From Nanobdellota archaeon (GTDB lineage Archaea; Nanobdellota; Nanobdellia; Pacearchaeales; GW2011-AR1), in NCBI GenBank assembly GCA_038045765.1, contig JBBSXN010000005.1, positions 136,218-200,217 on the forward strand: 64,000 bases of DNA, written 5' to 3'. The notes under the pieces are model-generated. The model ran no database searches. It saw nothing but the letters and a program-made list of their open reading frames with translations, and was not told the origin of the DNA. How positions within the stretch are numbered: the first letter of the stretch is position 1; every line of letters starts with the position of its first letter. The translations under genes were made by a program, and so were the position numbers. Below, in pieces: positions 20,218-48,865 of this stretch.

Positions 20218-20273
20218 AATGATAATTAATGGCTTAAAAGGATTTAAAAGGGTTTGGATTTTTTGTATTAGAT

Positions 20274-21900: not shown

Positions 21901-21943
21901 GTTAATAATAAATAACTTAGGGTTTTAAACTCTTTCCAATCAC

Positions 21944-23314
21944 TTAAAATCTAGCTTTCTTGCTGAATTTCTTTGCAAGTTTCATCATTGTTTTTTGATC
22001 TAGTGAACCTGATTCAATTCCTTTCATAGAACCAGACATTGAAGTCATTTCCTTTAACATTTTGAATTGTTTTATTAAAGCACGAATGTCAGAAGTTGAA
22101 GTACCTGAGCCGTGAGAAATTCTTTGCAGTCTAGACGTTTGTTTTTCTATTATTTCAGGATTTTCTCTTTCCTCTTTAGTCATTGAGCTAATTGCGTGTT
22201 TCCAGCGTTTAGTCTTTTTTTCTTGCTGTTCCATCATTTCAGGCGACAGTTTATCCTTTATCTTTCCTAGACCAGGAATCATAGACATTATTTTATCCAT
22301 ACTACCCATTGAGCTCATTGATTCTAACTGAGTTGCTAAATCGTCTAGCGTGAATTTTCCTTCTGAAAGCCTTTGTTGCTGGGAAGCTATTTCATCTTTA
22401 TCCATTACTGAATGGATTTTTTCCATTAATGTTTTTAGATCGCCCATGCCTAGAAGCCTTGAAAGGAAAGATTCTGGATCGAATGATTCTAAGTCTGAAT
22501 TTTTCTCACCTGTTCCTAAGAAAATAACTGGAGCTTTAACTTCTGCACAAGCAGTTAATGCTCCTCCTGCTTTTGCAGTTGAGTCCATTTTGGTTATTAT
22601 TACTCCAGACATATCTACTGCTTCTTTGAATTTTGATGCTTGCGTTCTAGCTGTTTGTCCTACATCTGCAGACATTACAAGTATTGTTTCAGTAGGTTTT
22701 GAGAGTTTAGATATATCTTTTATTTCTTTTATCAAATCAGAGGAGAGCGCATCTCTTCCTGCTGTATCTACTAGAACTAAATCGTATTTATCTAAATCTT
22801 TTTGATATTTTTTCCAGATCTTAACTGCTGATTTTTCTTCTTTATCTATAAAAACTGGCAAATTTAATTTGTCAAATAATTGCTTTAACTGCTCTGAGGC
22901 TGCTGGGCGATGGACGTCTAGTCCTATTGCGCAGACCTTGCTTCCACGCTTTGCATAGTAACTAGCTAATTTACTTATAGTTGTAGTTTTTCCTTGACCA
23001 TATAAACCAAGCATAAGCCAAACATTATGTTTTTGCAATTGAATTTGCTTGCTTTCTCCCAGTATTTTGACAAGTTCATCATGTAATAATTTTATTATAT
23101 GTTCTTTCTTTTCAAGGCCTGAAATCCTTTCATCTAAAGCAGCTTGTTTTATCTTTTTTGTAATTTCAAGGACTAGTCTTACATTTACATCTGCCTCAAT
23201 TAAAGCCCTTTGAATGTCTTTTATTATTGAATCTACTAAATTCTTATCAAGAAATATAGCATTAGCTATCTTGTCTGTTGTTTTTCGTAATACTTCTGAT
23301 AACTTATCTAACAT
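21944..23314 (-). CDS. srp54: signal recognition particle protein SRP54
   Basis: GLYGQGKTTTISKLA, DTAGR, TKMDSTAKAGGAL and a Met-rich M domain. Confidence 0.95.
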   Translation of the reverse strand: MLDKLSEVLRKTTDKIANAIFLDKNLVDSIIKDIQRALIEADVNVRLVLEITKKIKQAALDERISGLEKKEHIIKLLHDELVKILGESKQIQLQKHNVWLMLGLYGQGKTTTISKLASYYAKRGSKVCAIGLDVHRPAASEQLKQLFDKLNLPVFIDKEEKSAVKIWKKYQKDLDKYDLVLVDTAGRDALSSDLIKEIKDISKLSKPTETILVMSADVGQTARTQASKFKEAVDMSGVIITKMDSTAKAGGALTACAEVKAPVIFLGTGEKNSDLESFDPESFLSRLLGMGDLKTLMEKIHSVMDKDEIASQQQRLSEGKFTLDDLATQLESMSSMGSMDKIMSMIPGLGKIKDKLSPEMMEQQEKKTKRWKHAISSMTKEERENPEIIEKQTSRLQRISHGSGTSTSDIRALIKQFKMLKEMTSMSGSMKGIESGSLDQKTMMKLAKKFSKKARF

Positions 23315-23353
23315 GAAAAAAGGAGTCTTATAAAGGTATTAAAGGTTTTGGGT

Positions 23354-23764
23354 TTAATTTTCTAGAGGCAAATTCTTTCCTTTCCAGATTTGATCTTTTT
23401 GTTTTCTAGTATCTATCATTATTTCTATACCGTTGTTGTCTGGGTCGGAAAAGTATATTGCTTTGCTTATTACATGATCTATTAAGCCATAATCTATGTT
23501 GTTTTCTTTTAGCTTTTTCATTATTTCTTGAAATTCTTTCTTAGTTTGCACTTCAAGTGCAAAATGGTATAGCCCTAGAGTATTTTCATCTACGGGATTT
23601 GCATCATCTCTTTCCTGTAATGCTAATGCATGATGTTCTTCTCCCAAATGTAAGAATAGAAAAGGACCTACTCTTTCTCTAACTTTAAAACCTAGAATAT
23701 TAATATAGAATGCTTCTGATTTCTTTAGACTTGAAATTTTGAGATGGATATGATTGAGTTTCAT
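23354..23764 (-). CDS. VOC/glyoxalase-bleomycin resistance family protein
   Basis: LNHIHLKISSLKKSEAFYINILGFKV...YHFALEV...DPDNNGIEI pattern. Confidence 0.7.
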   Translation of the reverse strand: MKLNHIHLKISSLKKSEAFYINILGFKVRERVGPFLFLHLGEEHHALALQERDDANPVDENTLGLYHFALEVQTKKEFQEIMKKLKENNIDYGLIDHVISKAIYFSDPDNNGIEIMIDTRKQKDQIWKGKNLPLEN

Positions 23765-23838
23765 TTAGATTAGATTTACTAATTGTTAATAAAGTTGTGG
23801 TTTAGGTATATTTAAAAGCACATTGTTTTGATAATTTT

Positions 23839-24414
23839 ATGATCCAACAAGATAATGTAATAAGCCATTTAACTGAGTTAGCTAAGCTTCCTCAGAGAGG
23901 AGTTATTGGTAGATTAAATGTTAATGATTTAGTTAATAAAAGTAGTGGACTTTCTTACAGTATAGATGATTTAGGTATTTCTAGAGTTCTTGGTAATTTT
24001 CCTTTAGATGCATTACCTTATGGACCAGTTTATCGTTCTTTTAGAAATCCAAAACAAGATATATTGGGCCTTTTTGGAAAAGATACAAATATTCCTTTTT
24101 CAAGAGCGGTTGAATCTAGCGTTGGAGAATGTTTAGAAAAAGCTACTTTGCTTCAATTGGCCGTTCAAGATAACATGCCCTCTTTTTTAGTTAACGGAGC
24201 TATGTCTGAAGGAGATTCTTTAGATGGTTATCACGCTTTTAATGTGGTTTTTTCTTCTGGAAAGCCTTTTCTAGTTGATGTACAAAATCCTTTAAGAAAA
24301 GAAGAAGCTGGAAAACCTATTCGCCCATTTGTAGCCCCTATTTTAGGTATTGAACATGACTGGTTTGAGTTACCTGAGAATTGGAGACAAGGTAGAGCAT
24401 ATTATTTATCTTAA
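23839..24414 (+). CDS. hypothetical protein, possible transglutaminase-like Cys-His-Asp fold
   Basis: GECLEKATLLQLAVQDNMPSFLVNG ... GYHAFNVVF ... FLVDVQNP matches the spacing of transglutaminase-core Cys/His/Asp segments. Weak, by eye. Confidence 0.4.
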   Translation: MIQQDNVISHLTELAKLPQRGVIGRLNVNDLVNKSSGLSYSIDDLGISRVLGNFPLDALPYGPVYRSFRNPKQDILGLFGKDTNIPFSRAVESSVGECLEKATLLQLAVQDNMPSFLVNGAMSEGDSLDGYHAFNVVFSSGKPFLVDVQNPLRKEEAGKPIRPFVAPILGIEHDWFELPENWRQGRAYYLS

Positions 24415-25388
24415 TTATGTATTATATTATGTTGTATAAATTCTAAAGTTTTAAGGTCAGACCAGTATCTCTCTTTCTTGCTTTTTCCTAAGAAACCTGC
24501 ATGGCCTCCATGATTAGTTATTATTAAATTAATATGTTTGTTTTTCCTTATATCTTTATTGTAGAATGAGTTAACTGGAACTAGAGGATCATCCTTAGAG
24601 GTAATTATAAGTGTTGGAATATGGATATTTTTTATATATTTGATAGCACTCGCTCTATCATAATAGTCTCTTATTGACATGTAGCCCGTGTTTTTTGTTT
24701 GATAAATAGAGTCGAAATCTTTTACTGATGAAATGTCTGATAAGGGTGTTAAATCGTATAGGTTTGGAAGATGAATGTGTTTTTGTTTTATCAGAGATTT
24801 TAAACTTAGAAGAATTTTAAGTTTGTATAGCCAGTTTTCAGTCTTTTCAGATGCCTTTCCTGCTTCTTCTAAGTCTATTGCTGGAGAGATTGCAGTAAGA
24901 GAAAATACTTGCTTTGGAGAGATATATTCTCCAGCCCACTTTAGAGCAAGATTTCCTCCAAGAGAGTATGATACTATTGAAATGTTATTGTGTTTATTTT
25001 TAATAAGGTAAGAAATAACTGCTTGTAAGTCTGAGCTTTGACCAGCATTATAAATTGAAGGAGTTAGATTAGCAGTATTTCCACATCCGCGCATATTCAT
25101 TCTTATTATATTAAATCCATCAGTATATGCATGGCGGCTCATGCGTTCTACATAGGCCGAATTACTGCTACCCGTTAAACCGTGAATAATAAGGAGAGTT
25201 GGAGAGTTTTTCTTTTTTTGAAATGTACAATCTATCGCTAGCTTTCCTTCTTTTATATTTATTAGAATTCTTTTATTTTTATAAGAATCAGGAGGCCTTG
25301 GGCCTTTAGCTATTAAACCTAAAATTGTTTGTATATGTCTATTATCGAATAAGGGTATAAATTTTGATGTTGGTTTATGAATGTGCAT
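24411..25388 (-). CDS. alpha/beta hydrolase (YheT/ABHD-type)
   Basis: LLIIHGLTGSSNS, nucleophile elbow VSYSLGG, C-terminal DPLVP and HGGH. I start at MHIHKP (25388); the track start 25451 would overlap the NUDIX gene. Confidence 0.75.
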   Translation of the reverse strand: MHIHKPTSKFIPLFDNRHIQTILGLIAKGPRPPDSYKNKRILINIKEGKLAIDCTFQKKKNSPTLLIIHGLTGSSNSAYVERMSRHAYTDGFNIIRMNMRGCGNTANLTPSIYNAGQSSDLQAVISYLIKNKHNNISIVSYSLGGNLALKWAGEYISPKQVFSLTAISPAIDLEEAGKASEKTENWLYKLKILLSLKSLIKQKHIHLPNLYDLTPLSDISSVKDFDSIYQTKNTGYMSIRDYYDRASAIKYIKNIHIPTLIITSKDDPLVPVNSFYNKDIRKNKHINLIITNHGGHAGFLGKSKKERYWSDLKTLEFIQHNIIHN

Positions 25389-25438
25389 TGTTATTTTTAA
25401 GTAGAAGGATTTTTTAATGGTTTGTGTTATTAGAATTA

Positions 25439-25906
25439 ATGAAAAAAACAAGTGCAGGTATTTTGATATATAAAATAGTTGAGGGGAAGTTGAAAGTTTT
25501 TATCGTTCATCCTGGAGGGCCTTTCTGGAAAGGTAAGGATGAGAAATCTTGGGATTTTCCTAAGGGAGAGTTAGATGAGGGAGAGGATTTACTTGAAGCA
25601 GGAATAAGGGAACTTAAAGAGGAGACTGGAATAGATTTTTCTAATAAAAAGAGGGAAGAATTTTTATCTTTGGGAAATATAGTTAGAAAAGATGGGAAGA
25701 CAGTCCATATTTTCGCAATTGAAGGAGACTGGTCAGGGATATTAATGGGAAGCAGTTATGTGACTGTTGTAGATGGGAAAAGCGGGAAACAAATAAGATT
25801 CTTAGAAGTTGATAATGCTGGTTTTTTCAGTGTTGAAGATGCAAGGAAGAAAGTTTTTGCTAGTTTAGTTGAATTTTTGGACAGATTGGAAGATAAGTTA
25901 AAGTGA
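25439..25906 (+). CDS. NUDIX hydrolase
   Basis: Nudix box GELDEGEDLLEAGIRELKEETGI. Track start 25424 is GTG; ATG at 25439. Confidence 0.8.
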   Translation: MKKTSAGILIYKIVEGKLKVFIVHPGGPFWKGKDEKSWDFPKGELDEGEDLLEAGIRELKEETGIDFSNKKREEFLSLGNIVRKDGKTVHIFAIEGDWSGILMGSSYVTVVDGKSGKQIRFLEVDNAGFFSVEDARKKVFASLVEFLDRLEDKLK

Positions 25907-27040
25907 TTATTCCAATCCTAGGTTTTTCAGGATTGTTTTCTTTGTAAAAGGCGTGAGATCTTTGTAATCTTGTCCGGTACCTAGGAAGTAAATTGGTTTT
26001 TTGGTTATGTGGGAGACTGATAGGATGGTACCTGCTTTCTTATCTATATCTGCTTTGCTCAAAATTATTCCATCAATTCCTGCGGTTTCATTGAATGTTC
26101 TTGCTTGTTCAATTGCATCATTTCCAGTTATTGATTCTCCTACAAATATTTTTAGATCTGGTTTTGAGACGCGTATAATTTTTTCCATTTCTTTTAATAA
26201 GTTTGATTTTGTGTACATTCTTCCTGCTGTGTCTATTAGAACACATTGTATCTTATGAGATTTTGCGTATGAAATTGCATCAAATGCTACTGAAGAAGGG
26301 TCTGAACCATATTGGCTTGAAACAATTGGAACTTTCAATTTGTTTGCGTGTGTTTGAAGCTGTTCTATGCTAGCTGCACGAAAAGTGTCTGCAGCTGCTA
26401 ATACGCATGAAATTTTCTCTTCTTTTAGATAATGTGCTAGTTTCGCAATGGAAGTTGTTTTTCCAGTTCCATTTATTCCAAAGAAGAGAATGACGAAGGG
26501 TCCATCTTTCTTTTCTTTTATTTGTTTTATAATACTCGGAGGTTCTTGCAGAAGAGAAAGAATTGCTTCCTTTAAGGCAGCTAAGATTCTTGCAGGTGCT
26601 TCTGTTTTCTTTATCTGTTGATCTACTAAAGATTGTGATAGAGAAGCACGAATAGCATCCACTGCTTCTAATGCTACATTGTTTTCTAGTAAAGTTATTT
26701 CTAGGTCCTCAAAGGCCTCATCAAAATCAGTTTGTGAAAGTTTTGATGTTGATATTTTCCTTAGAAGTTTAGTGAAGAAGTTGCCTGATTCTTTTTCAGT
26801 TTCCTGGCTTTTTTCTATTTTTTCTGTTTGAATGGGCGTTTCAGATTCGGTTATCAGTTGATCTACTTCTTTATCGAGTTTTCTTTCTGAATATGTTTGA
26901 GATTTTGAGCTTTTTACAGATTTCGGCTTTTCTTTAATGCTCTTGCTCTCTGCTTTAGCTTTCTTTTTAGGTTTTTTCTCTACTTTTTCAGGCTTATTAG
27001 CTACCCAGCCTTGAATCTTTTTCTTTAGGAAATCAAACAT
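25907..27040 (-). CDS. ftsY: SRP receptor FtsY
   Basis: Charged Lys/Glu-rich N-terminal region, then GINGTGKTTSIAKLA, DTAGR, SKADIDKKAGT. Confidence 0.9.
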   Translation of the reverse strand: MFDFLKKKIQGWVANKPEKVEKKPKKKAKAESKSIKEKPKSVKSSKSQTYSERKLDKEVDQLITESETPIQTEKIEKSQETEKESGNFFTKLLRKISTSKLSQTDFDEAFEDLEITLLENNVALEAVDAIRASLSQSLVDQQIKKTEAPARILAALKEAILSLLQEPPSIIKQIKEKKDGPFVILFFGINGTGKTTSIAKLAHYLKEEKISCVLAAADTFRAASIEQLQTHANKLKVPIVSSQYGSDPSSVAFDAISYAKSHKIQCVLIDTAGRMYTKSNLLKEMEKIIRVSKPDLKIFVGESITGNDAIEQARTFNETAGIDGIILSKADIDKKAGTILSVSHITKKPIYFLGTGQDYKDLTPFTKKTILKNLGLE

Positions 27041-30216: not shown

Positions 30217-30306
30217 AGCCTCCAGGGGGAATCGAACCCCCGACCCCTAGTTTTTTTGGTCGATTCTTACAAAACTAGTGCTCTAAGCCAACTGAGCTAT
30301 GGAGGC
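30217..30306 (-). tRNA. tRNA-Thr(TGT) with 15-nt intron at 37/38
   Basis: Minus strand GCCTCCATAGCTCAGTTGGCTTAGAGCA-CTAGT-TTTGTA[agaatcgaccaaaaa]A-ACTAG-GGGTC-GGGGGTTCGATTCCCCC-TGGAGGC-T. Intron CAAAA can pair with the TTTTG of the anticodon region. Confidence 0.8.
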
Positions 30307-30350: not shown

Positions 30351-30432
30351 ATTCCAACTATTATATTGATTATAATGCTATTAAAAAGGTTTTGATTAAG
30401 CTTAAATAGACTTTAATTGTGGTAAAATAGTT

Positions 30433-30504
30433 GGCACTATAGTCTATCGGTTAGGACACATCTTTGACGTGGATGGAGGCCCAGTTCAACTCTGGGTAGT
30501 GCCA
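30433..30504 (+). tRNA. tRNA-Val(GAC)
   Basis: GGCACTATAGTCTATCGGTTAGGAC..., anticodon stem-loop CATCT-TTGACGT-GGATG, T-arm CCCAG-TTCAACT-CTGGG, 3' strand TAGTGCC-A. Confidence 0.85.
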
Positions 30505-30564
30505 TTTTCCTCTTTTGCGAAAATTTATATACTAGAAAGGTGTTGTTGTAGGATATACATTAGT

Positions 30565-31062
30565 ATGAGTTGGAAAGAGTTTTACTTTATAGGGTGTATG
30601 TTTCTTTTAGTTGTTGGAGTGTTTGTTTTTTCATCTTTTAGCTTTGTTAGTGCTGTGAGCAATAGTACTATCAATTTTAAAGTGGATATATTTGCTCCAC
30701 CTGCACCTGTTGTTAGGTTATCTTTGCCAGATAATATATATCTTGGAAATGTTTCTAAGGGAACGGAAACTGAGAAAGTGAAAGTTGAGTTTAATAATAC
30801 TGGAACTGTAGCAATTATAATAACTCCGCAGTTGAATGATAATAGTGAAAATATATTCAATTATACCTATTTTGCTAGAAGAACAACAGATAGTTATCAG
30901 AGAATAGGTCTTTGGAGCATGAATGTATCTGCTCCAGGTACTTCAGGTATCGAGGGAGATTACTTTTATGCTAAATTAGATTTAAGAAACTATCCTGGAA
31001 ACTTTACATCTGATTTAATCGCATATACAGTACCAATTAAGATATTAGCTGTTTCACAATGA
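30565..31062 (+). CDS. exported beta-rich protein (165 aa), first gene of surface operon A
   Basis: The track ORF starts at 30469 inside tRNA-Val. ATG 30565 gives Sec-type signal MSWKEFYFIGCMFLLVVGVFVFSSFSFVSA. Several NxS/T sequons; no family recognised. Confidence 0.55.
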   Translation: MSWKEFYFIGCMFLLVVGVFVFSSFSFVSAVSNSTINFKVDIFAPPAPVVRLSLPDNIYLGNVSKGTETEKVKVEFNNTGTVAIIITPQLNDNSENIFNYTYFARRTTDSYQRIGLWSMNVSAPGTSGIEGDYFYAKLDLRNYPGNFTSDLIAYTVPIKILAVSQ

Positions 31063-31622
31063 GATTATTTGTTTTTTTGGTTGCTTTTTTATTAATGATT
31101 GGATTTGTTTCTGGAGTTGAAATAGGAGTTAGTCCACCTGAACTGATATTTTCAGATAGTGTAGGGGAGAGTTGTCAGGAAATTAAGATAATGTCTGAAG
31201 ATAAGCTATTGTTTAATCTTGAAGATAAGTGGAATACTATTTCTAATAGTAGAAGTCCGGTATTTTATACTGGAAATAGTGATGAGGCTGGAGTGGTCGT
31301 TAGTTATGAAAGACAAGTTGTTGTTAGTGATGGCTTTAAGATTGTGAAAGTATGTTTAAAGAGTGTTGAAGAGGGTAAAAAGCACGGAATTTTGATATTT
31401 GAGAGTAATGGAGCAAGTTTGGGAGTTAGAATTCAGGTCAAAAGTGAGGAAAATAAGGAAATTGAAAGATTAATTGGAATTACTGGGGGCGTTGTTAATA
31501 ATGATGGAGATAATATCTTCTTTGAAGGTAATAGGATAGTTTTATACCTCTTATTGTTTGACTTGGTTTTATTTGTAGTATTAATATATCTACTTTATAT
31601 GCTAAATAGAAGAAAGACTTAG
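31059..31622 (+). CDS. exported protein with C-terminal TM anchor (187 aa)
   Basis: ATGA overlap with the previous gene. Signal MRLFVFLVAFLLMIGFVSG, beta-rich body, C-terminal IVLYLLLFDLVLFVVLIYLLYML-NRRKT anchor. Confidence 0.55.
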   Translation: MRLFVFLVAFLLMIGFVSGVEIGVSPPELIFSDSVGESCQEIKIMSEDKLLFNLEDKWNTISNSRSPVFYTGNSDEAGVVVSYERQVVVSDGFKIVKVCLKSVEEGKKHGILIFESNGASLGVRIQVKSEENKEIERLIGITGGVVNNDGDNIFFEGNRIVLYLLLFDLVLFVVLIYLLYMLNRRKT

Positions 31623-31693
31623 TTACTTAGTAAGTAATTAAGTTAATAAGCAAGATTTATATAGAGTTATTGATTTGTTTGCTGATAGTTATT

Positions 31694-31828
31694 ATGAAGA
31701 AATATTTACTTTTAATAGAGGATGAGAAGCTTTGGGAGAGATTTAAAGAGAATAATCAGAGTGATTTAAACACTGAGATAATTGATTTAATTAAAAGAAG
31801 AGTGGAGAGTAGAAATGTTAAGAAATAA
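31694..31828 (+). CDS. 44-aa ORF, possible ribbon-helix-helix-like mini-protein
   Basis: MKKYLLLIEDEKLWERFKENNQSDLNTEIIDLIKRRVESRNVKK. Overlaps the start of the 611-aa ORF; preceded by palindrome TTACTTAGTAAGTAA and GATTTATATAG. Speculative. Confidence 0.2.
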   Translation: MKKYLLLIEDEKLWERFKENNQSDLNTEIIDLIKRRVESRNVKK

Positions 31829-33650
31829 TTTAATAGGTAAAAAAGGACAGGTGAGTTTATTTGTAGTTGTGGCTTTAGTGTTGGTAATTGGTGTGGGAGT
31901 TTATTTTGGGATAAGCAAAGGAATATTCTCTTTTGATGAAAGTGAGAGTTTTACAGAAGTTTACAATTATTATGATGAATGTGTGAAACAAGATGGATTG
32001 AAGGCGTTAGATATAGCTGGAAGTCAGGGTGGGAGAATAGAGGTTGGAGAGTATGTGCCTGGAAGTGATTATGCTCCATTTTCTTCTCAGTTGAATTTTC
32101 TTGGTTTTCCTGTTCCTTACTGGTATTATATAGGTGGAAATGGGCTCGTAAAAGAGAATGTTCCAAGCAAGGCAGATGTTGAAAAAGAAATTGAAAATTA
32201 TCTTGTGCAGAGAACATTAGATTGTGATTTTACCCCTTTAGCTGAGAGAGGATTTAGTGTTGGTTTGAATGATGTAGATTTTGATGTTAGTATTAATGAT
32301 GATTTTATTCAGGTTAAGTCTAATACTGTATTAAATGTTGAGAAGGATGGGAAAAGTGCAGAGACAAAAGGAAGAACTTTGCAGATAAATAGTAATTTTG
32401 GTAAAATGCTAACTACTGCTCAGGATTTATATGAAAAACAGATAAATGAAGCAATACTTGAAAATTATAGCGTGGATGTTTTGAGACTTTATGCTCCTGT
32501 TGATGGGGTAGAAATACAATGCAGTCCTAAAATATGGAAAGCACAAGAAGTTGTTGATGAATTGCAAAATGCTTTGCAGAGTAATATTAATAGCATAAAA
32601 TTTAATACTGAGAAAGATAGTTATTTCTCTGTTAATTATCAGAGCGAATTTGAGATAAATACTCTTTACTCAAGACAGTGGCCTTGGAAAGTAGAGGTAT
32701 ATGGTGCTGAAGATGGCTTAATGATTGCTGAACCTGTCGGAAATCAGAATGGAATGGGTTTAATGGGCTTTTGTTATGTTCCATATCATTATGTCTATGA
32801 TGTAAGTTATCCTGTGATGTTTCAGATAAGTTCTGGAGAGGAATTATTTCAATTTCCAGTTGCTGTTGTAATAGATAAAAATGTTCCTAGGCAAGCTGAG
32901 CAGGTTGAGTTATTTGATGATAATTCTAACTTCGATTTGTGTAAGGATAAAACTCAAGACATTCAGATAAGAACTTTTGATAGTAATTTGAATAGTGTTG
33001 AGGCTGATTTAAGTTATGAATGCTTTAATCAGAAGTGTGCTTTAGGAAAGACGAATAATGGTGTGTTTAGTGGTAAATCTCCTGCATGTGTAAATGGAAG
33101 GATAATTGCAAAAGCTGAAGGTTATCAGGATTATAGTGAATTGTTTTCAAGTAATGAAGAAAGTAGTAAGGATTTGATTATGGATAAATTGTATGATGTA
33201 GATATTGAAGTTAGTGTTTCGGGTAAGAATGTAAATGATATGGCTATAGTAGTATTTAATGGAAAGAGGACTGCTTTTGCTTCTCTTCCAGATAATAATA
33301 AAGTTAGAATTGCTGAAGGATCGTATAATGTAAGTGTGTATATTTATTCTAATTCAAGTTTGAAGATACCTGAAAGTAAGAAAACTGAATGCAGGGAAGT
33401 TTTTAAGTCAGGAATACAAGGAGCGCTTGGATTTACAGAAGAGAAGTGCTTTGATATTGTAATTCCAGCTACTAATCTTGATTTTGCTTTGGTTGGAGGT
33501 GGAAAATCGGAAAGCTATGTTCTTGCTTCACAATTGGAAAGTGGAAAGATAAAAATAGATGCTGATAGTTTACCTTTGCCTGATTCAATTGAGAAATTGC
33601 AACAGAATTATGCTACTTTTGAAACTTTGAATTTGGAGGTTGGAGCATGA
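31815..33650 (+). CDS. large exported protein (611 aa) with type-IV-pilin-like (class III) signal
   Basis: MLRNNLIGKKGQ-VSLFVVVALVLVIGVGVYFGI has K-G-Q followed by a ~20-residue hydrophobic helix. The rest is hydrophilic with scattered Cys. No family recognised. Confidence 0.6.
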   Translation: MLRNNLIGKKGQVSLFVVVALVLVIGVGVYFGISKGIFSFDESESFTEVYNYYDECVKQDGLKALDIAGSQGGRIEVGEYVPGSDYAPFSSQLNFLGFPVPYWYYIGGNGLVKENVPSKADVEKEIENYLVQRTLDCDFTPLAERGFSVGLNDVDFDVSINDDFIQVKSNTVLNVEKDGKSAETKGRTLQINSNFGKMLTTAQDLYEKQINEAILENYSVDVLRLYAPVDGVEIQCSPKIWKAQEVVDELQNALQSNINSIKFNTEKDSYFSVNYQSEFEINTLYSRQWPWKVEVYGAEDGLMIAEPVGNQNGMGLMGFCYVPYHYVYDVSYPVMFQISSGEELFQFPVAVVIDKNVPRQAEQVELFDDNSNFDLCKDKTQDIQIRTFDSNLNSVEADLSYECFNQKCALGKTNNGVFSGKSPACVNGRIIAKAEGYQDYSELFSSNEESSKDLIMDKLYDVDIEVSVSGKNVNDMAIVVFNGKRTAFASLPDNNKVRIAEGSYNVSVYIYSNSSLKIPESKKTECREVFKSGIQGALGFTEEKCFDIVIPATNLDFALVGGGKSESYVLASQLESGKIKIDADSLPLPDSIEKLQQNYATFETLNLEVGA

Positions 33651-36600
33651 AAATAATTTATTTATTGGTTTTAGCTGGATTGGTATTTGCTAGTATTGCT
33701 GGTGTTTATGCACAATCAACTGGATTTTATGGTGGAGTTGGAAGCAGTTCCTTTGTGAATCAACAGCTTTCTAGACCTAGTTTTCAAACATATTACGGAG
33801 AAGATAATCGATTAGGAACTTACTGGCCTATTTTGAATGATAAGGCTAGTTGTGAAGGAAGAGAAGATTTCATATTACAAGTTTCTCCAGGTGGTTGCCA
33901 GCCAGCAGTTGTTAGAAGCGATTTACTAGAAGATCAGAACGTTCCAGTATTTTGTCAAGTAGATGCTTTACAAATTAATCCTTTAATCGATGTTAAGGAA
34001 ATAAGAAATATAAGATTTAGTGGAAAGTATCCTGATAATGTTGCAGGTGTTGGTTTTCATCCTGCTAAGGCTGCTTTGAGAACAAACGATATATTGCTAG
34101 GAAGCCCAGTAATAAATAATATTGGATATGTGGTTGTTGTTTTGAAGAGAGTGCAGAATGAATCTTCTATAAAAGATGTATTAAATATGAATTTAACTGC
34201 ACAGTTAGATTATCAAGCAGGAAATGCTTATGGAATTGGAAAGAGCGAGTATTATTTAGAACCTAGTGATGATAAATCTTGGAACGAGAATAGACATAAG
34301 CAAGGATTTTTCCAAGGACAGTATTTTGTAAGATTAGATGATGTAGATGCTAATTTTGCACAAGTTTCTTTGTATAAGGGAGATGTTAGAATAACAAGTA
34401 CTAAGGTACAATTAGGAAGAGAATCTGCAGATATATTTTTACCAGGATTTTATTGTGGTGCAGGTTTGAAAGTTGCTTATGATGGTTTTGTTGCTAAGCA
34501 AGATAAAGCAAGAATTGAAATAAGAGATGAGAGAGGAGTTGATAGTTTCGATGCTTACAGAGGAAGCACATTTTTAGATGGTAATTGCAGAGTTGATAAT
34601 TTGAATGTTAATGGTGATGGAAGTACAGGTATTTTAGAAGCAAGTTGTTATGGTAAGAGATTTGTTTTGAGTTTAGGTGTGAAAGATCCTCTTAATAAGA
34701 CTGGCGAGTCAAATGTTAAGAATGATGATAAGATTAGACCAGAAGTATTAAATTATTTAACTGAGACTTTGAAAGCTTATGAAAATGTTGCTGATGATTA
34801 TCCTCAGGAAACTAAAAAGGATAGTGCAGGAGTTAGGACTTATGGAGAAGCAGCACTTAGTCAAGCTATCCAAATAGCTAATGATAATAAGCAGTTTAGT
34901 ACTGAAGTAAGATTGAGAAATAAGTTTATTGAATTGTATCCTAATTCATTAGAAGCTGATGGTTATAAGAAAATTGTGCAAGATAGATTGAATTTTGATT
35001 ATGTTGATGCTGTTAAAGTTATTGATATTGGAAGTAGGCCTAGAACTGTGAGTTTAATTAGATTTGAGAAATTACAGAGTCAAGAGAGTAAGGCTAAAGC
35101 ATTATTTTTAATTGGAGGAAGTCAAAGGACATTAAGACTTGGAGAGGAAAGCAAAGAGGGAGATAAAACATTAAGATTAGTTTATATTGATTCGAGCAAT
35201 GCTAAAATTGATTGTAGCAGTGTTAAAAATAATAATGTGGTGAAGAGTCCTACTCTTTCTTTGAGAATTGGGCAGAATGGTAATTTATGTGGAGATGCAG
35301 GTAATAAGATTACATTATTAGAAGTTCAGGATGTGGATAGAGTAGCAAGAATAAGATTAATTCCACATGCAAAGAATCCTACTACTCAAACTAACTTAAG
35401 TTTAAGTATTGGAATTGAGAAAAGAGCAATTCAGTTGAGTCCTGAGAAAACTGAATTAAAGATAAAGAATTTAAATAAGAGCATTGAGAATTGGGAAAAG
35501 ATTTCTAAGAGTCTTGGAAAAGTAGTTACTGGATTGAAAACAGCTTGTTTTGCTACTGCTGGAGTTTTAACTATAAAGAATTTGCTTGATGGTGTTGGAG
35601 GAGAAGCACTTGCTAGACAACAGACAATGACTGGACCTGGAGGATGGACTGAGAAGTGCGGACAGATGGTTGCTAAGAAAGAGAAAGGATATACTAGTAT
35701 GACTCAATGTTATAATGGTGAAGCTGATAAAATAAATGCAGATGTTAAAACTAGAACAGATGCTTTGACGAAAGTTAATGAGAATATAGCTCAAGTAGAA
35801 AAAGATCCTAGTATTGTTACTAAGGGTGTTTTGGAATCAACTGTTAATGTTGATAAGGCTAAATTAGCTTATGCTCAAAAGTTGAAGAATCAAGGATTGG
35901 ATGTTCCAACTGATGAGAAGACTTTGAAATATATTACCTATAGTGATTTAAGGGAACTAGAATATAATTCAATATTAAAGAGTAAAGGTCTTTCTGTTAA
36001 TCAAGATAAAGTTAATAGTGATTATGATTTAGTCAGTAATAAAATTAAAGCTAGTAGAGAAATGACTGAGCTCGCTAGTCAATCTCAACTTGTTAGTAAT
36101 AGTCTTACTGGTGATAGTGCTGGTAAAATTGGTGATTTACCTAATGCGAATGTTGCAAGAACAAGAGTTTACAAGTTGTCTGATGGCAAAGTTGAAGGAA
36201 AAGAAATTAAGGCTTTACCTGTTGATGTTAAACCTAGCGCAGTTTCATTTTTAATAGGAAGTAAAGCTATATATGACAAAAATGGAAATTCTGAAGGGTA
36301 TACAAATCCTCAGAAATTTATGGTTGTTGGAACTCTAGATGGCAAAGGAGTTTTACAAGGACAACAAGTCTACAATATTACTGAAACTAATGATAAAATA
36401 GAAATAACTGGTCAACCTAAAGACGGTAATAATGTAAATGCATTTTTAGCTAGTTATAAAGTAGCACAGATAAAAGATACTGGTGCGCAGAAGTTTGGAA
36501 ATCCAATTATATCTGCGAATCAAGAAGTTAGATATTTTGGAAGTGGGACTTATGATGGTTTTGCTGCTACAGTTCCATTTGATATAATAGAGGGTTGGTA

Positions 36601-38854
36601 TGTTAATGTTAAACCTACTCTTGGAGTTGGTAATCAGCAAGTGAATTATGATAAATCTGGAGCACCAAGAGTATTTGATATATGTAATGTTGGAGATGAT
36701 TCTACTATTGATTCTAAAGATGAATGTCAGACAATCCATGTCGGAGTTAATGATAATGAACCTGTTCTTGGATTGGCTGCAGATAAATCGAGAAGTTTAA
36801 TTTCTAAAGCTAAACAAGCACTTATTGAGGCTGCTAGTCAGAGAGGAAGTAGTGTTGTAAGTGTTAATGGCCAGAAGATGAGAGTTGGAGAAAGAATGGC
36901 TGCTGTTTCAGGAATGCAGTGTCAAGACTTTATGAAACCTGAAGATTGTAAGTTATTGTTTAATGTTTGTGATCCAGTTATATGTCCTGCAAGTAGATGT
37001 AATTTTGGAGGGAAGTATCAAGTTGATGATGTAATTCAGACCGGAATTGTTGGAGGAGCATTGCTATGTTTACCAAATGCTCAAGAAGGAATAATTGCAC
37101 CCGTTTGTTTATCAGGTATACAGGCAGGTGTTGATGGATATTTGAGCGTTATGAAATCTTATAGAAGTTGTTTGCAGGAGAACTTGAAGACTGGAAAGTT
37201 GATTGGAGTTTGTGATCAGATACATTCTATTTATATGTGTGATTTCTTCTGGAGACAGTTTAGTCCATTAGCTAATGTTTTAGTTCCTAAAGTAGTTGAA
37301 TCGCTTTATTCAGGAAAAGCTGGAGGAGAAGTAAGAAATGGTGGAGAGTATCTTACTACTAAAACTGCTTTTGATAATACTAAGAAATCAGTAGACTTCT
37401 TTACTCAGAGCTATGCAGTTAATTCATTAAAAGCATTTCAAGCAAGATCAAGTGTGGAAGTTGGTGCTTTGGTTTGTAAGAGTTTTGTTTCTTCACAGTC
37501 TCCTAAGTCCTTTAAGAATTTAGTTGAGCCAGATAGTCCTCCTCAGTTTTTCGCACAGTTTGATTCAATTAGATTTACAGATACTACCATTCCTCCAACT
37601 GCACAGTATAAAGTATTTTATCATATATTTGCAGGAAAGGATAGGGGAGTTCAGTATAATATTTATTTGAAGAATCCTCCTACATCTAGTGAATATTTTG
37701 CAAATCCAACTATACAAGTTGAATCTGGTTTTATTGGATTAGGGCAGACAGTAGATAAAGCAAAAGACTTTACAGCTCCAGAAGGATATAAAGAGTTGTG
37801 TGTAAGAATAAATGATAGAGAGTATTGCGGATTTAAGCAAGTTACAACTGATTTTGGTTTGAATTATCTTAAGGATGAGTATGTTAAAGATCAGCTTCAA
37901 AATACAAATATTCAGAATGCTGAAGAGTGTATATACGGAACTCCTGATTTGAAAGGCGCATTAGCAAATACAAATCCTCAATTTGCTGGAGAAGAAGCAG
38001 GACTACCTCAAATATACAAGAGAGGAATAGTTAGGATATGTGCAAGTAGTAATCCAGGTGCTTCAACTAATTCTGAAAGATATCAAGCAGTAGGAAAGTG
38101 TGATGATAATAAGCAGTGCTGGCTTGATAAGCAGAGCGTAAATAATGCTTTGATAGATACAAACGCAGTTAAGAATATTGGCGCAAGGAATGAAACTTTG
38201 GATAAATTAAGTAAAGAACAGATTGCAAATCTCGGAAAGGATAATGCTGAACTTTATATAAAAGCTGAAGATAGTGAGAAAATAAAATTGAAAGTTAACG
38301 ATATAAAGACAAATACTAATGCTTTAGTAGATAACGGTGATTTGAAAAATATAGTTAAAAAAATAGTTGACGATATTGATTCATTTGTTGTAAAACATTT
38401 ATTTTATAACGAACATAAAGCTGAGTTTCTTTATTTGAAAGCTGAAGTTTATGGAAAAGCATTGAGTATTGTTAATCCAAAGAAAGCAGATGCTCAACTT
38501 TCAGCAACTGGTTCAACTATTGATTCTACGTCTGCTAGTAATAATCAAGTTAGTAATGTTCCTGTCGTTGAGGATAAATTAAGTTTTGATGAGGAATTTA
38601 GTTTGAGTGGAGGGAAGTCATATTTAGTATATTTAAATGATAAAGAATCAGGAGTATTAATAAATAATAAAGGAGTTTATTTTAATGCGAACAAGATTGG
38701 TAGTTTTAAAGTATCTGGAGATTTACTTATAATAAATCTTGATTATGATCTAGATGATGTTGTTCTTGTTTCTTTAGGATTAGACCAAAGAGTTGGAAAG
38801 CTGTTAGAAGGCGCAACAATTAAGCTTGGAAGTAAAGAGATCGTTAAGAAATAA
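33647..38854 (+). CDS. giant secreted Cys-rich protein (1735 aa)
   Basis: Uninterrupted 5.2-kb ORF with ATGA overlap to the previous gene. Signal MKIIYLLVLAGLVFASIAGVYA-Q. Roughly thirty Cys, including the cluster CQDFMKPEDCKLLFNVCDPVICPASRC. No family recognised. Confidence 0.75.
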   Translation: MKIIYLLVLAGLVFASIAGVYAQSTGFYGGVGSSSFVNQQLSRPSFQTYYGEDNRLGTYWPILNDKASCEGREDFILQVSPGGCQPAVVRSDLLEDQNVPVFCQVDALQINPLIDVKEIRNIRFSGKYPDNVAGVGFHPAKAALRTNDILLGSPVINNIGYVVVVLKRVQNESSIKDVLNMNLTAQLDYQAGNAYGIGKSEYYLEPSDDKSWNENRHKQGFFQGQYFVRLDDVDANFAQVSLYKGDVRITSTKVQLGRESADIFLPGFYCGAGLKVAYDGFVAKQDKARIEIRDERGVDSFDAYRGSTFLDGNCRVDNLNVNGDGSTGILEASCYGKRFVLSLGVKDPLNKTGESNVKNDDKIRPEVLNYLTETLKAYENVADDYPQETKKDSAGVRTYGEAALSQAIQIANDNKQFSTEVRLRNKFIELYPNSLEADGYKKIVQDRLNFDYVDAVKVIDIGSRPRTVSLIRFEKLQSQESKAKALFLIGGSQRTLRLGEESKEGDKTLRLVYIDSSNAKIDCSSVKNNNVVKSPTLSLRIGQNGNLCGDAGNKITLLEVQDVDRVARIRLIPHAKNPTTQTNLSLSIGIEKRAIQLSPEKTELKIKNLNKSIENWEKISKSLGKVVTGLKTACFATAGVLTIKNLLDGVGGEALARQQTMTGPGGWTEKCGQMVAKKEKGYTSMTQCYNGEADKINADVKTRTDALTKVNENIAQVEKDPSIVTKGVLESTVNVDKAKLAYAQKLKNQGLDVPTDEKTLKYITYSDLRELEYNSILKSKGLSVNQDKVNSDYDLVSNKIKASREMTELASQSQLVSNSLTGDSAGKIGDLPNANVARTRVYKLSDGKVEGKEIKALPVDVKPSAVSFLIGSKAIYDKNGNSEGYTNPQKFMVVGTLDGKGVLQGQQVYNITETNDKIEITGQPKDGNNVNAFLASYKVAQIKDTGAQKFGNPIISANQEVRYFGSGTYDGFAATVPFDIIEGWYVNVKPTLGVGNQQVNYDKSGAPRVFDICNVGDDSTIDSKDECQTIHVGVNDNEPVLGLAADKSRSLISKAKQALIEAASQRGSSVVSVNGQKMRVGERMAAVSGMQCQDFMKPEDCKLLFNVCDPVICPASRCNFGGKYQVDDVIQTGIVGGALLCLPNAQEGIIAPVCLSGIQAGVDGYLSVMKSYRSCLQENLKTGKLIGVCDQIHSIYMCDFFWRQFSPLANVLVPKVVESLYSGKAGGEVRNGGEYLTTKTAFDNTKKSVDFFTQSYAVNSLKAFQARSSVEVGALVCKSFVSSQSPKSFKNLVEPDSPPQFFAQFDSIRFTDTTIPPTAQYKVFYHIFAGKDRGVQYNIYLKNPPTSSEYFANPTIQVESGFIGLGQTVDKAKDFTAPEGYKELCVRINDREYCGFKQVTTDFGLNYLKDEYVKDQLQNTNIQNAEECIYGTPDLKGALANTNPQFAGEEAGLPQIYKRGIVRICASSNPGASTNSERYQAVGKCDDNKQCWLDKQSVNNALIDTNAVKNIGARNETLDKLSKEQIANLGKDNAELYIKAEDSEKIKLKVNDIKTNTNALVDNGDLKNIVKKIVDDIDSFVVKHLFYNEHKAEFLYLKAEVYGKALSIVNPKKADAQLSATGSTIDSTSASNNQVSNVPVVEDKLSFDEEFSLSGGKSYLVYLNDKESGVLINNKGVYFNANKIGSFKVSGDLLIINLDYDLDDVVLVSLGLDQRVGKLLEGATIKLGSKEIVKK

Positions 38855-38870
38855 TTCTTAGAAATTAAAA

Positions 38871-38954
38871 TGCGGGGACAAGGATTCGAACCTTGGAAGG
38901 CACTAAGCCATGGGAGCCTAAATCCCACCCGTTAGACCACTCCGGCATCCCCGC
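38871..38954 (-). tRNA. tRNA-Leu(TAG)
   Basis: Minus strand GCGGGGATGCCGGAGTGGTCTAACGG..., anticodon stem-loop TGGGA-TTTAGGC-TCCCA, long variable arm, T-arm CAAGG-TTCGAAT-CCTTG. Confidence 0.85.
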
Positions 38955-39013
38955 ACAATTAAGGTGAGATTAGAAGTATTTTAAATGTTTAGATTAAAGT
39001 AAAAGCAATTAGA

Positions 39014-45608: not shown

Positions 45609-47255
45609 TTATTTTTTCTTTAGAATTCTTATTAGTATTAATCCGATTATTATAAGGGAAATAATGGTTAGGAGAGGTATTTTTAATCTCTCCAGAGTTA
45701 TCTCCTTTTGACTTTTGACTGTAAACCAGACACTACTGCTAGCAATTTCTTGGTCATATTCAATGGTCACATATAATATATGCTGCCCAGACCTAACATT
45801 ATCTGGAAGTTTGAATACCTTTTCTAAAGATAATTCTTTATTTACATAGAGAGTTTCATTTTCAGTTAGTATGATTTTATTATACTGATCTTTGAGGTAG
45901 TAAGTTGCTTTAACTTGAGTTTCTTTTTCACCTAAATTATATAATTTTAATGAAGAGATAAGGTCTTCTCCAGGAGATGCAGTAAGATGGCTATTTTTGA
46001 TACTTATTTTAACATCAAATAAAGACTTTACCGAACTGATAGTTATAGAAACCGGTACACTAATATCTGCAATTCTAGATTTTATTAGTATATTTCCTAT
46101 GTAGTTATCTTCTGATAAGTTTTCACCAGCTATGAAATTTAAGTTAATCTCTTTTGATTGCCCTTTTGTTAAGTTAAATGATTTTTCATTAATTACCAGT
46201 ATATTTTCTAAGTTGGAGGATAATTCGATAGAAATATCTGATCTGTTGGAATTAATTATAGTTAAATTATATTTAGTTAATTCTCCTTTCTTTAAATTAA
46301 CAGCTAGATTATCTGGTTGGACTGTAAATGGAGGGTTTTGTGCTATTCCTCCTGCTCCAGAACCCTCTGAAGAACTACCAGAACTGCTGCTAGAGGAGCT
46401 ACTTCCTCCTGAATCTCCACTTCCTGAAGATGAAGTAGTTTCTTCTGCAGAATATGTCGAGAATGAAGTTACATTAAAGGTTAATGTTCCTGAAGAATAA
46501 GTTATCTTTGCACATTCACTTGATGAACATAAAGACCCATCTTTTAGTATTCTCGGGTTTGAAAAAGTTAAGTTATATAGCGTTAGAATTGCCGATTTGT
46601 TGAAGTTAGGCAAGGCTGAGGAGTTTAATTCAATTCTATTAAAACTTATATTCACATTATTTGATAGGTCGCATAAGTTATTAGAGCATTGTGTAAGATT
46701 GATTGTTTCCTGGAAATTAATCTTCCCAAAATTGCTTTTTTCTAAAGATATATTGCTTAAATTTTGAATTTCTTCATAACCGTAGTCATAAAAATCAGTT
46801 GTTTCTCCTTCAGTTATAAATTCATTATAACTAACATTAAATCTAGTATTATTTATTGTAAAATTAATATTTTTAACAACAACATTATTATCAGTATCAT
46901 TGGCATAGATGCGTAGGGAATGAGCGCCATTTGAAGATATATTAAATAAAATCGGAGCAGTGATAGTTATGTTTGTACCACCATCTAAAGCATACCAAAA
47001 AGCCATTTCATTAACTGAAGTATAATTTAGAAGGATGTTCTCTTTCGTAAAATAAGTCACGTTTCTCGGGCTTATTAGAGCAGTATTTGGTAAAAGAGCA
47101 GTAATTTGAACAGATATAGAAGCATATTGTACTGTTGCTTTGCCCGTAATGGCCTTTCCAGTAATAGTATTATTTGAAGAAGAGATACTAGATGAATTTG
47201 TAGATAATATTATAATCAATAGTAATATTATCAGACAATTAGTATATTGTTTCAT
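45609..47255 (-). CDS. NxS/T-rich surface protein (548 aa) with Ig-like domain, Ser/Gly linker and C-terminal TM anchor
   Basis: Signal MKQYTNCLIILLLIIILS. Domain NVTYFTKENILLNYTSVNE..YALDGGTN...HSLRIYANDTDNN is related to the Ig-like repeats of the giant. Linker SSSGSGDSGGSSSSSSSSGSSSEGSGAGG. Anchor IPLLTIISLIIIGLILIRIL-KKK. Confidence 0.65.
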   Translation of the reverse strand: MKQYTNCLIILLLIIILSTNSSSISSSNNTITGKAITGKATVQYASISVQITALLPNTALISPRNVTYFTKENILLNYTSVNEMAFWYALDGGTNITITAPILFNISSNGAHSLRIYANDTDNNVVVKNINFTINNTRFNVSYNEFITEGETTDFYDYGYEEIQNLSNISLEKSNFGKINFQETINLTQCSNNLCDLSNNVNISFNRIELNSSALPNFNKSAILTLYNLTFSNPRILKDGSLCSSSECAKITYSSGTLTFNVTSFSTYSAEETTSSSGSGDSGGSSSSSSSSGSSSEGSGAGGIAQNPPFTVQPDNLAVNLKKGELTKYNLTIINSNRSDISIELSSNLENILVINEKSFNLTKGQSKEINLNFIAGENLSEDNYIGNILIKSRIADISVPVSITISSVKSLFDVKISIKNSHLTASPGEDLISSLKLYNLGEKETQVKATYYLKDQYNKIILTENETLYVNKELSLEKVFKLPDNVRSGQHILYVTIEYDQEIASSSVWFTVKSQKEITLERLKIPLLTIISLIIIGLILIRILKKK

Positions 47256-47305
47256 ATCTTTTTATGAGGCCATTTATATTTAAATGTGTTTAGAATAGAA
47301 TATAA

Positions 47306-47866
47306 TTATTTATTCTTTGACTTTCTAACAAACCAAATAATTATTGCAATCAAAATTATTATTCCCACTAACATGTAAATATAAGAATTATTAGATTTTA
47401 CTGGTTTTTCTTCTATGATTGTTTTTTCTGTTGGCACTACTATATCGAATGACTTGTCAAATACGCTTCCTAAGCTAAATCCAGAGGCTGAAGGGTTTAC
47501 TGCTGAGAAAGATAAGATAACATTATGTCTCTCTCCTATTTTGGCTGTTGCAGGCATAGTAACTTTTATATTTACTTTGATGTTTTGAGTTTGTGCTGGG
47601 ACATTGTAAACTTCATTTGAATCAATTAATTCAATAAATTCAGCTCCTTTAGTTATACTTACTTTAAAATTAAGATCATCAGTCCCAACCATGTTCTGCA
47701 ATTCAAAAAATATTTCCTTTGATTCTCCTGGTTGAAGGTAAAGTGGTCTTTCGTTATCTCCATCCCAGTAAAATGAAGTGACTCCTGATGCTGAAACAAA
47801 TGAGAGTGTTAAAGCTAGAGCTAAAAGAGAAAACAATGCAAGATTTATTGATTTATTGATTTCCAT
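47306..47866 (-). CDS. surface beta-sandwich protein (186 aa) with C-terminal TM anchor
   Basis: Signal ...LALTLSFVSASG; C-terminal YIYMLVGIIILIAIIIWFV-RKSKNK. Same architecture as ORF 31059-31622. Confidence 0.6.
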   Translation of the reverse strand: MEINKSINLALFSLLALALTLSFVSASGVTSFYWDGDNERPLYLQPGESKEIFFELQNMVGTDDLNFKVSITKGAEFIELIDSNEVYNVPAQTQNIKVNIKVTMPATAKIGERHNVILSFSAVNPSASGFSLGSVFDKSFDIVVPTEKTIIEEKPVKSNNSYIYMLVGIIILIAIIIWFVRKSKNK

Positions 47867-47868
47867 TT

Positions 47869-48831: not shown

Positions 48832-48865
48832 CACTCCATTAATCACATATTTTTATATTTAAACC

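Follow-up and report, generated by a model that had tools for sequence, protein, structure and literature searches.

The SlaA/SlaB surface layer (S-layer) of the Sulfolobales, in which SlaB is anchored at its C-terminus and, in Sulfolobus, slaA is the first gene, and the CofB-CofJ and TcpB-TcpF pairs of bacterial type IVb pili, in which a pilin-like protein of ~500 residues with beta-rich C-terminal domains has a secreted partner from the same operon, are among the described systems closest to the locus considered here. The bindosome offers a further precedent, with large functional proteins that bear a prepilin-type N-terminus, basic at position -2, and rely on the prepilin peptidase (PMC3387779). 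In the DPANN archaea, S-layer candidates have been described as highly expressed, rich in immunoglobulin (Ig) folds and heavily N-glycosylated (10.1101/2023.10.27.564410), and the Pacearchaeota possess lineage-specific modules and families without predicted function that are often membrane-bound or extracellular (PMC8204110; PMC9258230). Here we analyze five open reading frames (ORFs), all on the forward strand of a 64-kb stretch of DNA (the window) from a Nanobdellota archaeon of the Pacearchaeales (contig JBBSXN010000005.1). The last two encode a 611-residue protein and a protein of 1735 residues and 190 kDa (the giant), and we propose, with about an even chance of being right, that the two form a self-regulated, membrane-anchored, heteromeric envelope complex in which the 611-residue protein is the anchor and stalk and the giant the distal working part. 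The proposal is made because of the conserved synteny, the coupling of the codons, the logic of the anchor and the conserved cysteines.

The 611-residue protein is encoded at 31815–33650 and the giant at 33647–38854 (ORF listing), with the stop codon of the first overlapping the start codon of the second in an ATGA at 33647–33650. Gene order was scored in 84 related loci that were fetched, the later set comprising 88. The giant gene directly follows that of the 611-residue protein in 82 of the 84, the remaining two ending at a contig edge, and the stop of one overlaps the start of the other in 66 of 77 loci, as an exact ATGA in 49. Relatives at just 25–37% identity, and relatives of the 611-residue protein whose regional means are 20–35% identity to it, still show the same order, a 611-like gene followed by a giant-like gene with overlapping codons. 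The first-pass annotation, made from the sequence alone, had named co-occurrence of the two genes across DPANN genomes and conservation of their synteny as points on which its reading could stand or fall; the genes are co-inherited, they overlap in most loci and their order is retained in relatives rather than lost. A pattern scan using one genome per species detected relatives of the 611-residue protein in 572 species genomes, all labelled as Pace-, Woese- or Nanoarchaeota or as unclassified archaeon, and a full hidden Markov model search with this family returned 6455 clusters (50% identity) at E ≤ 1e-3, 833 of them at E ≤ 1e-30. In the distant loci L085 (16462–17205), L086 (16512–17354) and L088 (12171–12821), a homologous protein of ~216–280 residues with a hydrophobic N-terminus (mutual blastp E-values from 1e-6 to 1e-18) is encoded just after the giant; the window has no counterpart, and the protein may be an extra component in this distant lineage.

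Both boundaries of the locus are tRNA genes, tRNA-Val(GAC) at 30432–30505 on the forward strand and tRNA-Leu(TAG) at 38870–38955 on the reverse strand, each called by ARAGORN and Rfam. This could be taken to suggest that the locus was brought in by a mobile element or virus that integrated between tRNA genes. The same frame, however, with its housekeeping neighbors, is found in most loci: among the 38 in which the flanks were scored, most have tRNA-Val(GAC) upstream and most have tRNA-Leu, mostly with a TAG anticodon, downstream, where the transcription factor gene TFB also recurs. The module is nearly always single-copy and set among housekeeping genes. In the window the flanking genes encode a dCTP deaminase-like protein, a kinase-like NTPase, an amino-acid-kinase-family protein and TFB, and S8e, RadA and SRP54 are encoded elsewhere in it, a gene content that marks the window as archaeal. 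SRP54, RIO kinase and a DHH/Cdc45-like gene lie within 10–15 kb of the module in the window (16484–27040) and in L085 and L086, with FtsY also nearby in L086, so that synteny reaches well past the module. The GC content of the locus matches the remainder of the window (~32%), no relatives of the module were found in viral contigs (IMG/VR) and no integrase family occurs in the annotated gene tables, which cover seven neighborhoods. With conserved synteny and no IMG/VR relatives, a mobile or viral origin is effectively excluded. Sequence comparison thus describes the core trio, formed by these two genes and the 44-codon gene that precedes them (the mini-ORF, below), as a vertically inherited core-genome module of Pace-/Woesearchaeota-type Nanoarchaeota and not an island.

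The 611-residue protein starts with a predicted class III (prepilin-type) signal, MLRNNLIGKKG|QVSLFVVVALVLVIGVGVYF (31815–31916, forward strand), with cleavage predicted between G11 and Q12. The KKG|Q site is followed by 22 hydrophobic residues, and hydropathy finds one N-terminal transmembrane (TM) segment after it, a segment present in 120 of 120 proteins of the family. Among close homologues 115 of 120, and among distant ones 73 of 82, have the motif [KR][GA]Q immediately ahead of the hydrophobic core, with a median leader of 8 residues. Archaeal class III signals are recognized by the residues at -2, -1 and +1, that at -2 being basic (PMC3387779). A short leader, G or A at -1 and a hydrophobic stretch of ~20 residues after the site complete the pattern, which the window protein shows, and the 'textbook' class III N-terminus seen at first pass is borne out by its retention in close and distant homologues alike. 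The window also encodes a prepilin peptidase (Peptidase_A24, PF01478; score 53.4 bits, cutoff 26.5) at 2100–2957 on the forward strand, which may act in trans as the processing enzyme of the 611-residue protein. About 1.4 kb upstream of the peptidase gene, beyond a gene for an AI-2E-family transporter on the opposite strand, a 212-residue ORF (68–706) has an N-terminus, NKRG|AEADLGSTLSVIVIIILSLLV, that resembles a class III signal; its product contains 6 cysteines (2.8%), has no Pfam hit and may be a further prepilin-type substrate.

Members of the 611-residue family share 45–55% identity at a constant length of ~615 residues, a conservation above that of the giant family, and all 10 cysteines are invariant in close and distant relatives alike. 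N-x-S/T sequons occur at an observed/expected ratio of 0.61. In the AlphaFold2 (AF2) model (pLDDT 78) the TM helix (residues 10–34) is followed by a second helix (residues 43–70), a conserved alpha/beta domain and three C-terminal beta-sandwich domains. Foldseek searches of this model against the PDB returned generic tandem beta-sandwich hits with TM-scores ≤0.15, the best of them to Gram-positive pilins and adhesins with E-values down to 7e-8; the hits included neither a type IV pilin fold nor an S-layer protein, and the alpha/beta domain had no fold match.

These observations bear on the possibility that the 611-residue protein is a large minor pilin of a type IV filament that displays the giant as an adhesin at the filament tip. 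Adhesin-like proteins of large size are indeed encoded in certain loci for archaeal type IV filaments (10.64898/2026.04.22.720090), and the conserved class III motif, the occurrence of the A24 peptidase gene near an ORF with KRG|A and a hydrophobic N-terminus, and the pilin and adhesin hits just described all speak for such an accessory. The low TM-scores, however, show that these hits reflect generic tandem beta-sandwiches and not a type IV pilin fold, 611 residues is far above the size of filament-forming archaeal pilins, and none of the seven annotated neighborhoods contains a filament ATPase or platform gene. We therefore regard a filament role as distinctly unlikely. The description of the locus as a 'pilin-like-anchored or filament-associated' machine stands in its first half, an anchored complex being plausible from the conserved class III signal, the A24 gene and the anchorless giant, and finds no support in its second. 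Its further idea of adhesion or host interaction is conjectural.

The giant, by hydropathy, carries only an N-terminal Sec signal (residues 1–22) and no membrane anchor, and no TM segment apart from the signal peptide was found in any of 120 giants. The giant family thus lacks an anchor of its own, and its genes are co-inherited, and overlap, with those of the 611-residue family, which makes an anchored complex outside the cell plausible. The 30 cysteines of the giant amount to 1.73% of its residues against 0.89% for the window ORFs, and all 30 are invariant in a 39-sequence family sample. The earlier label 'Cys-rich' thus holds in that the content is above that of the window, although the excess is modest, and it is the invariance that stands out. 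A VKOR homologue of the window, a 132-residue membrane protein (PF07884; score 66.1 bits, cutoff 27.5), is encoded at 21502–21900 on the reverse strand, adjoining the RIO kinase and SRP54 genes. Because of this homologue, extracytoplasmic disulfide formation is plausible in this small-genome archaeon, and VKOR may serve in trans as the oxidant for the conserved cysteines of the giant and the 611-residue protein.

Conservation within the giant family (37–52% identity apart from nearest relatives; each named member annotated as a hypothetical protein, and an identical giant annotated in a 'Nanoarchaeota archaeon' metagenome-assembled genome) is concentrated in blocks at residues 51–350, 551–700 and 950–1500, the core blocks having a mean identity of 60–77% to the window protein. 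Residues 700–950 and the tail are variable, and homologues bear long C-terminal extensions; a Pfam scan of long homologues aimed at these extensions found one TSP_3 repeat only. The most conserved core (residues 950–1500, encoded at 36494–38146 on the forward strand) comprises a beta region, a Cys-cluster/helical domain, a beta-sandwich and an alpha/beta domain, and includes a cluster of 10 invariant cysteines (residues 1092–1198, 36920–37240, forward strand) with a mean identity of 66–77% to the window protein in the 39-sequence sample. The AF2 model (pLDDT 70), which covers residues 545–1640, is largely helical and places long helices ahead of this series of domains and a helical tail after it. 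Foldseek searches of the modelled part against the PDB and BFVD gave no hit at E ≤ 1e-3, and no S-layer protein.

The giant and the 611-residue protein could, alternatively, be a two-component S-layer of the SlaA/SlaB type, with the giant as outer lattice and the 611-residue protein as membrane stalk. We know of no S-layer protein established for this clade, and the co-encoded, coupled pair of an anchored mid-size and a large anchorless secreted protein, the stalk-like beta-sandwich domains of the former and a nearly always single-copy module among housekeeping genes are what such a system would offer. Against this, the giant contains 7 N-x-S/T sequons where 14 are expected (ratio 0.49; family median 0.50), a depletion opposite to the 1.8- to 2.35-fold enrichment in proteins encoded elsewhere in the same window. 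The core is helix-rich and Cys-conserved and lacks an Ig-like domain array, its block identity of 60–77% is higher than lattice proteins usually show, the anchor lies at the N-terminus and not, as in SlaB, at the C-terminus, and neither model found an S-layer protein by Foldseek. Because of the sequon depletion, helical core, fixed cysteines, high conservation and lack of a fold match, we consider a two-component S-layer of this type rather unlikely, and a classical glycosylated S-layer role for the giant is likewise unlikely.

The sequon-enriched proteins belong to a second surface operon of the window (operon B, 45609–55498, reverse strand), which encodes a 2210-residue protein with three Laminin_G_3 domains as well as Big_13 domains; the enrichment is seen in this protein and its neighbors. 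Because of it, they appear better candidates for S-layer or adhesin glycoproteins than the giant. Homology between the two loci was considered and rejected: none was found, as had been noted at first pass, and the large protein of operon B has known domains.

A different function is suggested by the hydropathy of the most conserved block, in which the two most hydrophobic internal segments of the giant (residues 1129–1143 and 1148–1162) form a hairpin within the 10-Cys cluster. Many DPANN archaea depend on hosts, and the giant might be a membrane-active contact device whose hairpin inserts into a host membrane as a pore, as a bridge or for lipid uptake. The location of these segments inside a disulfide cluster and helical domain, the sequon depletion, which would suit a surface kept bare, and weak Foldseek hits to diphtheria toxin all point in this direction. 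However, the toxin hits are insignificant (E 0.06–0.3, probability ≤0.28) and a T-domain-like fold is not seen; hydropathy reaches 1.65–1.74 over 15-residue windows, and no 19-residue window there exceeds the TM cutoff of 1.5; the hairpin is modelled with a pLDDT of just 56–75, falling below 50 right after it; and no host is known for these organisms. A host-membrane device is, in our view, quite improbable.

It is less probable still that the two proteins form an extracellular enzyme or nutrient-scavenging complex of an unrecognized family. Genome-reduced organisms must scavenge nutrients, many polar residues are invariant in both large proteins, and the conserved N-terminal alpha/beta domain of the 611-residue protein, lacking a fold match, could be of such a kind. 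No catalytic family, however, was found with Pfam, NCBIfam, PDB profiles or Foldseek, and the invariant residues include no recognizable metal-binding or nucleophile motif, which leaves this explanation very unlikely.

The core trio opens with the mini-ORF (31694–31828, forward strand; ORF listing), which encodes a basic protein of 44 residues (pI 9.2) and overlaps the gene of the 611-residue protein by 14 nt. The 71-nt spacer that separates it from the preceding ORF holds a conserved extended promoter-like motif, TAATAAGCAAGATTTATATA (31644–31663, forward strand), with BRE- and TATA-like elements (BRE, B recognition element), the TATA being TTTATATA at 31656–31663 and the motif ending 30 nt before the mini-ORF ATG. 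With up to 3 mismatches tolerated, 54 of 72 loci have the motif TAATAAGNAAGRTTTWTATA ahead of the mini-ORF (background, 0.005 per 150 nt), and the consensus of loci places the end of the TATA box a median of 36 nt before the start codon.

A tract of five [C/G]T[A/T]A tetramers in tandem, CTTAGTTACTTAGTAAGTAA (31618–31637, no strand assigned), adjoins this promoter as a candidate operator and includes the palindrome TTACTTAGTAAGTAA at 31623–31637. A run of four tetramers occurs at one place only in the window, where 0.05 are expected by chance, and the pattern is present in 63 of 88 loci. All 64 tracts found in the first 84 loci (regular expression requiring ≥4 tetramers) lie just upstream of the mini-ORF or of the 611-residue protein gene, and their consensus keeps a strict 4-bp period over ~32 bp directly upstream of the promoter. 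In related loci, across hundreds of species, this conserved non-coding element with its unusual period is confined to the DNA ahead of the module. The mini-ORF itself was found by tblastn directly before the 611-residue protein gene in 71 of 84 loci. Across the 84 loci, tract and mini-ORF are both present in 60 and both missing in 11; 11 loci have a mini-ORF without a strict tract, several of them with an interrupted one, and two have a tract without a mini-ORF. The latter two are masked, with runs of N directly after the tract at the expected mini-ORF site (L037, ~213–290; L057, from 9780).

The mini-ORF product has a beta-alpha-alpha-like pattern, and its N-terminal 35 residues are nearly invariant. 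In distant loci its position is taken by other small genes: a true ribbon-helix-helix (RHH) gene in L085 (8871–9014; 56B_RHH 31.4 bits, ParG 26.9 bits) and a winged-helix gene in L088 (2372–2557; FeoC 27.7 bits). A related winged-helix-like segment in L087 (9001–9195) is joined in frame as an N-terminal extension to a 706-residue ORF, with Pfam hits below cutoff, and may be either a fusion or a merge by gene calling. Because RHH and winged-helix genes occupy the mini-ORF position, comparison of the loci indicates that a small DNA-binding first gene recurs there, the type of protein differing between loci. The mini-ORF, listed at first pass as a component of the surface operon, is not itself a surface component; from the co-occurrence with the tract and the genes at its position in distant loci, it is most likely a small DNA-binding regulator, and we infer that the 44-residue protein may be an autoregulator that binds the tetramer tract. 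Assignment of this protein to the RHH family was tried and rejected, Pfam scans of 22 family members and two hhalign comparisons all being negative; its 'INSEI' stretch resembles Arc.

The two remaining ORFs appear to be accessories. ORF1 (30565–31062, forward strand, 165 residues) and ORF2 (31059–31622, forward strand, 187 residues; ORF listing) overlap in an ATGA at 31059–31062. An alternative ORF1 start, GTG 30469, falls within tRNA-Val, and 165 residues is likewise the length in the public annotation of this same contig, so that ATG 30565 is most likely the ORF1 start. By hydropathy ORF1 has an N-terminal hydrophobic signal and ORF2 a signal and a C-terminal TM segment followed by NRRKT. 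ORF1 is enriched 2.9-fold in N-x-S/T sequons (6 against 2.1 expected). Homologues stand at the equivalent position in just 15 of 84 related loci for ORF1 and 12 of 84 for ORF2; a large database yielded just 10 homologues of ORF1, none carrying a Pfam domain, and ORF2 had no Pfam or NCBIfam match. A second copy of TTTATATA, read from the sequence at 30524–30531 on the forward strand, 33 nt before the ORF1 ATG, is TATA-like and has a spacing to ORF1 that matches that of the core-unit promoter; it is a candidate promoter of the pair.

Because ORF1 has this TATA-like box of its own and a 71-nt spacer with another splits ORF2 from the mini-ORF, the region is predicted to form two transcription units, the ORF1-ORF2 pair and the core trio. 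The first-pass description of a single operon of five tightly coupled ORFs is therefore revised, the spacer with its own TATA and the scarcity of ORF1 and ORF2 across loci both standing against it. Its reading of the letters is otherwise reproduced: the ORF listing gives the same five ORFs, both ATGA overlaps can be read directly, ARAGORN and Rfam find the framing tRNA genes, hydropathy agrees on the signals and anchors of ORF1, ORF2, the 611-residue protein and the giant, and the palindrome and internal TATA stand ahead of the mini-ORF. The view that no product is assignable to a known family also held. Searches of the five products against Pfam and NCBIfam gave nothing above noise, family profiles of the giant, the 611-residue protein and the mini-ORF gave nothing meaningful against PDB sequences, Foldseek with either AF2 model returned nothing more specific than generic beta-sandwiches, and no homologue in a characterized system was found.

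Our results allow a mechanism to be proposed for the assembly of the envelope complex. The core unit would be transcribed from its own BRE/TATA promoter, the sequence of which is conserved, and the basic 44-residue protein would bind the [C/G]T[A/T]A array beside it and so autoregulate the unit. The 611-residue protein would be exported by Sec, its short leader cut at KKG|Q by the A24 peptidase of the window, and would then be held in the membrane by its N-terminal hydrophobic helix, with the three C-terminal beta-sandwich domains forming a stalk. The giant would be made in step with it through the overlapping stop and start codons, an overlap that is itself conserved, secreted with cleavage of its Sec signal and locked by as many as 15 disulfides, for which VKOR might be the oxidant. 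Lacking an anchor of its own, the giant would be tethered at the surface by the 611-residue protein. The invariant core of the giant, including the buried-looking hydrophobic hairpin, would be the working part, with the variable middle and C-terminal tail facing outward, and ORF1 and ORF2 would be optional surface accessories under their own promoter. The complex would then most likely be a compact envelope or contact machine without glycosylation, in preference to an S-layer that forms a lattice or an adhesin of simple repeats.

Several observations weigh against this proposal of an anchored and self-regulated complex. Retention of the 611-residue protein in the membrane would be equally explained by an uncleaved signal-anchor, and the seven annotated neighborhoods contain no T2SSE or T2SSF family, the ATPase and platform of type IV filaments. 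The AF2 models are moderate (pLDDT 78 for the 611-residue protein and 70 for the giant, pTM ~0.5), that of the giant covers residues 545–1640, and its hairpin, at pLDDT 56–75, is followed by a drop below 50 at residues 1184–1233. On the regulatory side, the joint loss of tract and mini-ORF could be the deletion of one cassette. The mini-ORF product matched no RHH or HTH profile: Pfam scans of it and 21 homologues gave no RHH match, a PDB sequence-profile search with it gave no match, and the hhalign probability was 7% for a hand-typed RHH set and 1% for the RHH protein of L085. The beta-strand predicted in it, YLLLI, is also more hydrophobic than is usual in strands that read DNA.

A bolder form of the proposal would make the 611-residue protein and the giant a clade-defining extracellular machine of unseen folds that engages the envelope or membrane of another cell through the disulfide-caged hairpin and is switched by a new 44-residue DNA-binding protein reading repeats of 4-bp period; we think this unlikely. 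In either form the module matters, since the Pace- and Woesearchaeota are abundant and uncultured, with tiny genomes, and it is among the most conserved of their protein families without a predicted function. It also offers concrete targets, namely two proteins whose structure and location could be determined, a predicted processing site, and a small protein with its DNA tract, a pair accessible in vitro with no need for culture.

Some features of the window lie apart from the module. The tRNA-Tyr gene (30217–30306, 90 nt) and a tRNA-His called by ARAGORN with anticodon 'atg' (63251–63343, 93 nt) are longer than usual and are likely to be intron-containing; the anticodon assigned to the His tRNA seems unreliable. 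A free-standing 242-residue LAGLIDADG_3 ORF lies at 12206–12934, and a similar LAGLIDADG ORF is found just upstream of tRNA-Val in L001.

Searches of the literature turned up no account of the module, the promoter tract or the small first gene. A surface complex with a prepilin-type anchor is of a known kind, and the protein families, modelled folds and regulatory element appear to be new. The module and SlaA/SlaB of the Sulfolobales both pair a large, anchorless secreted protein with a smaller, anchored stalk containing beta-sandwiches, and in both the genes are adjacent and the proteins made together. However, neither the giant nor the 611-residue protein shows a sequence or fold match to SlaA/SlaB, the anchor of the module is N-terminal and prepilin-like, the giant is helix-rich, Cys-conserved and sequon-poor, and the anchor gene comes first. 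The DPANN S-layer candidates NEQ300, Micr_00292 and MJ1_0160 (10.1101/2023.10.27.564410) are, like the giant, lineage-restricted, secreted, large 'hypothetical' envelope proteins. They have been described as rich in Ig folds and N-glycosylation and as the most highly expressed, whereas the giant is sequon-depleted, keeps its cysteines and has a helical core without an Ig array.

For the regulatory element, the RHH repressors MetJ, omega and CopG/ParG provide the nearest likeness, with a first-gene protein of ~45 residues, short tandem repeats abutting a promoter and, in L085, an RHH gene at the locus itself. They differ in that no RHH profile matches the mini-ORF family significantly, the repeats here recur every 4 bp and the DNA binding is putative. 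In CofB-CofJ and TcpB-TcpF the proteins are bacterial and encoded in complete pilus operons; here the partner is ten times larger and no fold match to them was returned. The bindosome shares with the window the prepilin-type motif together with a peptidase gene. The module differs from it in having no substrate-binding-protein fold, ABC transporter or nearby pilus-assembly genes, and two features are peculiar to the 611-residue family, its invariant Gln at +1 and its coupling to a partner of 190 kDa.

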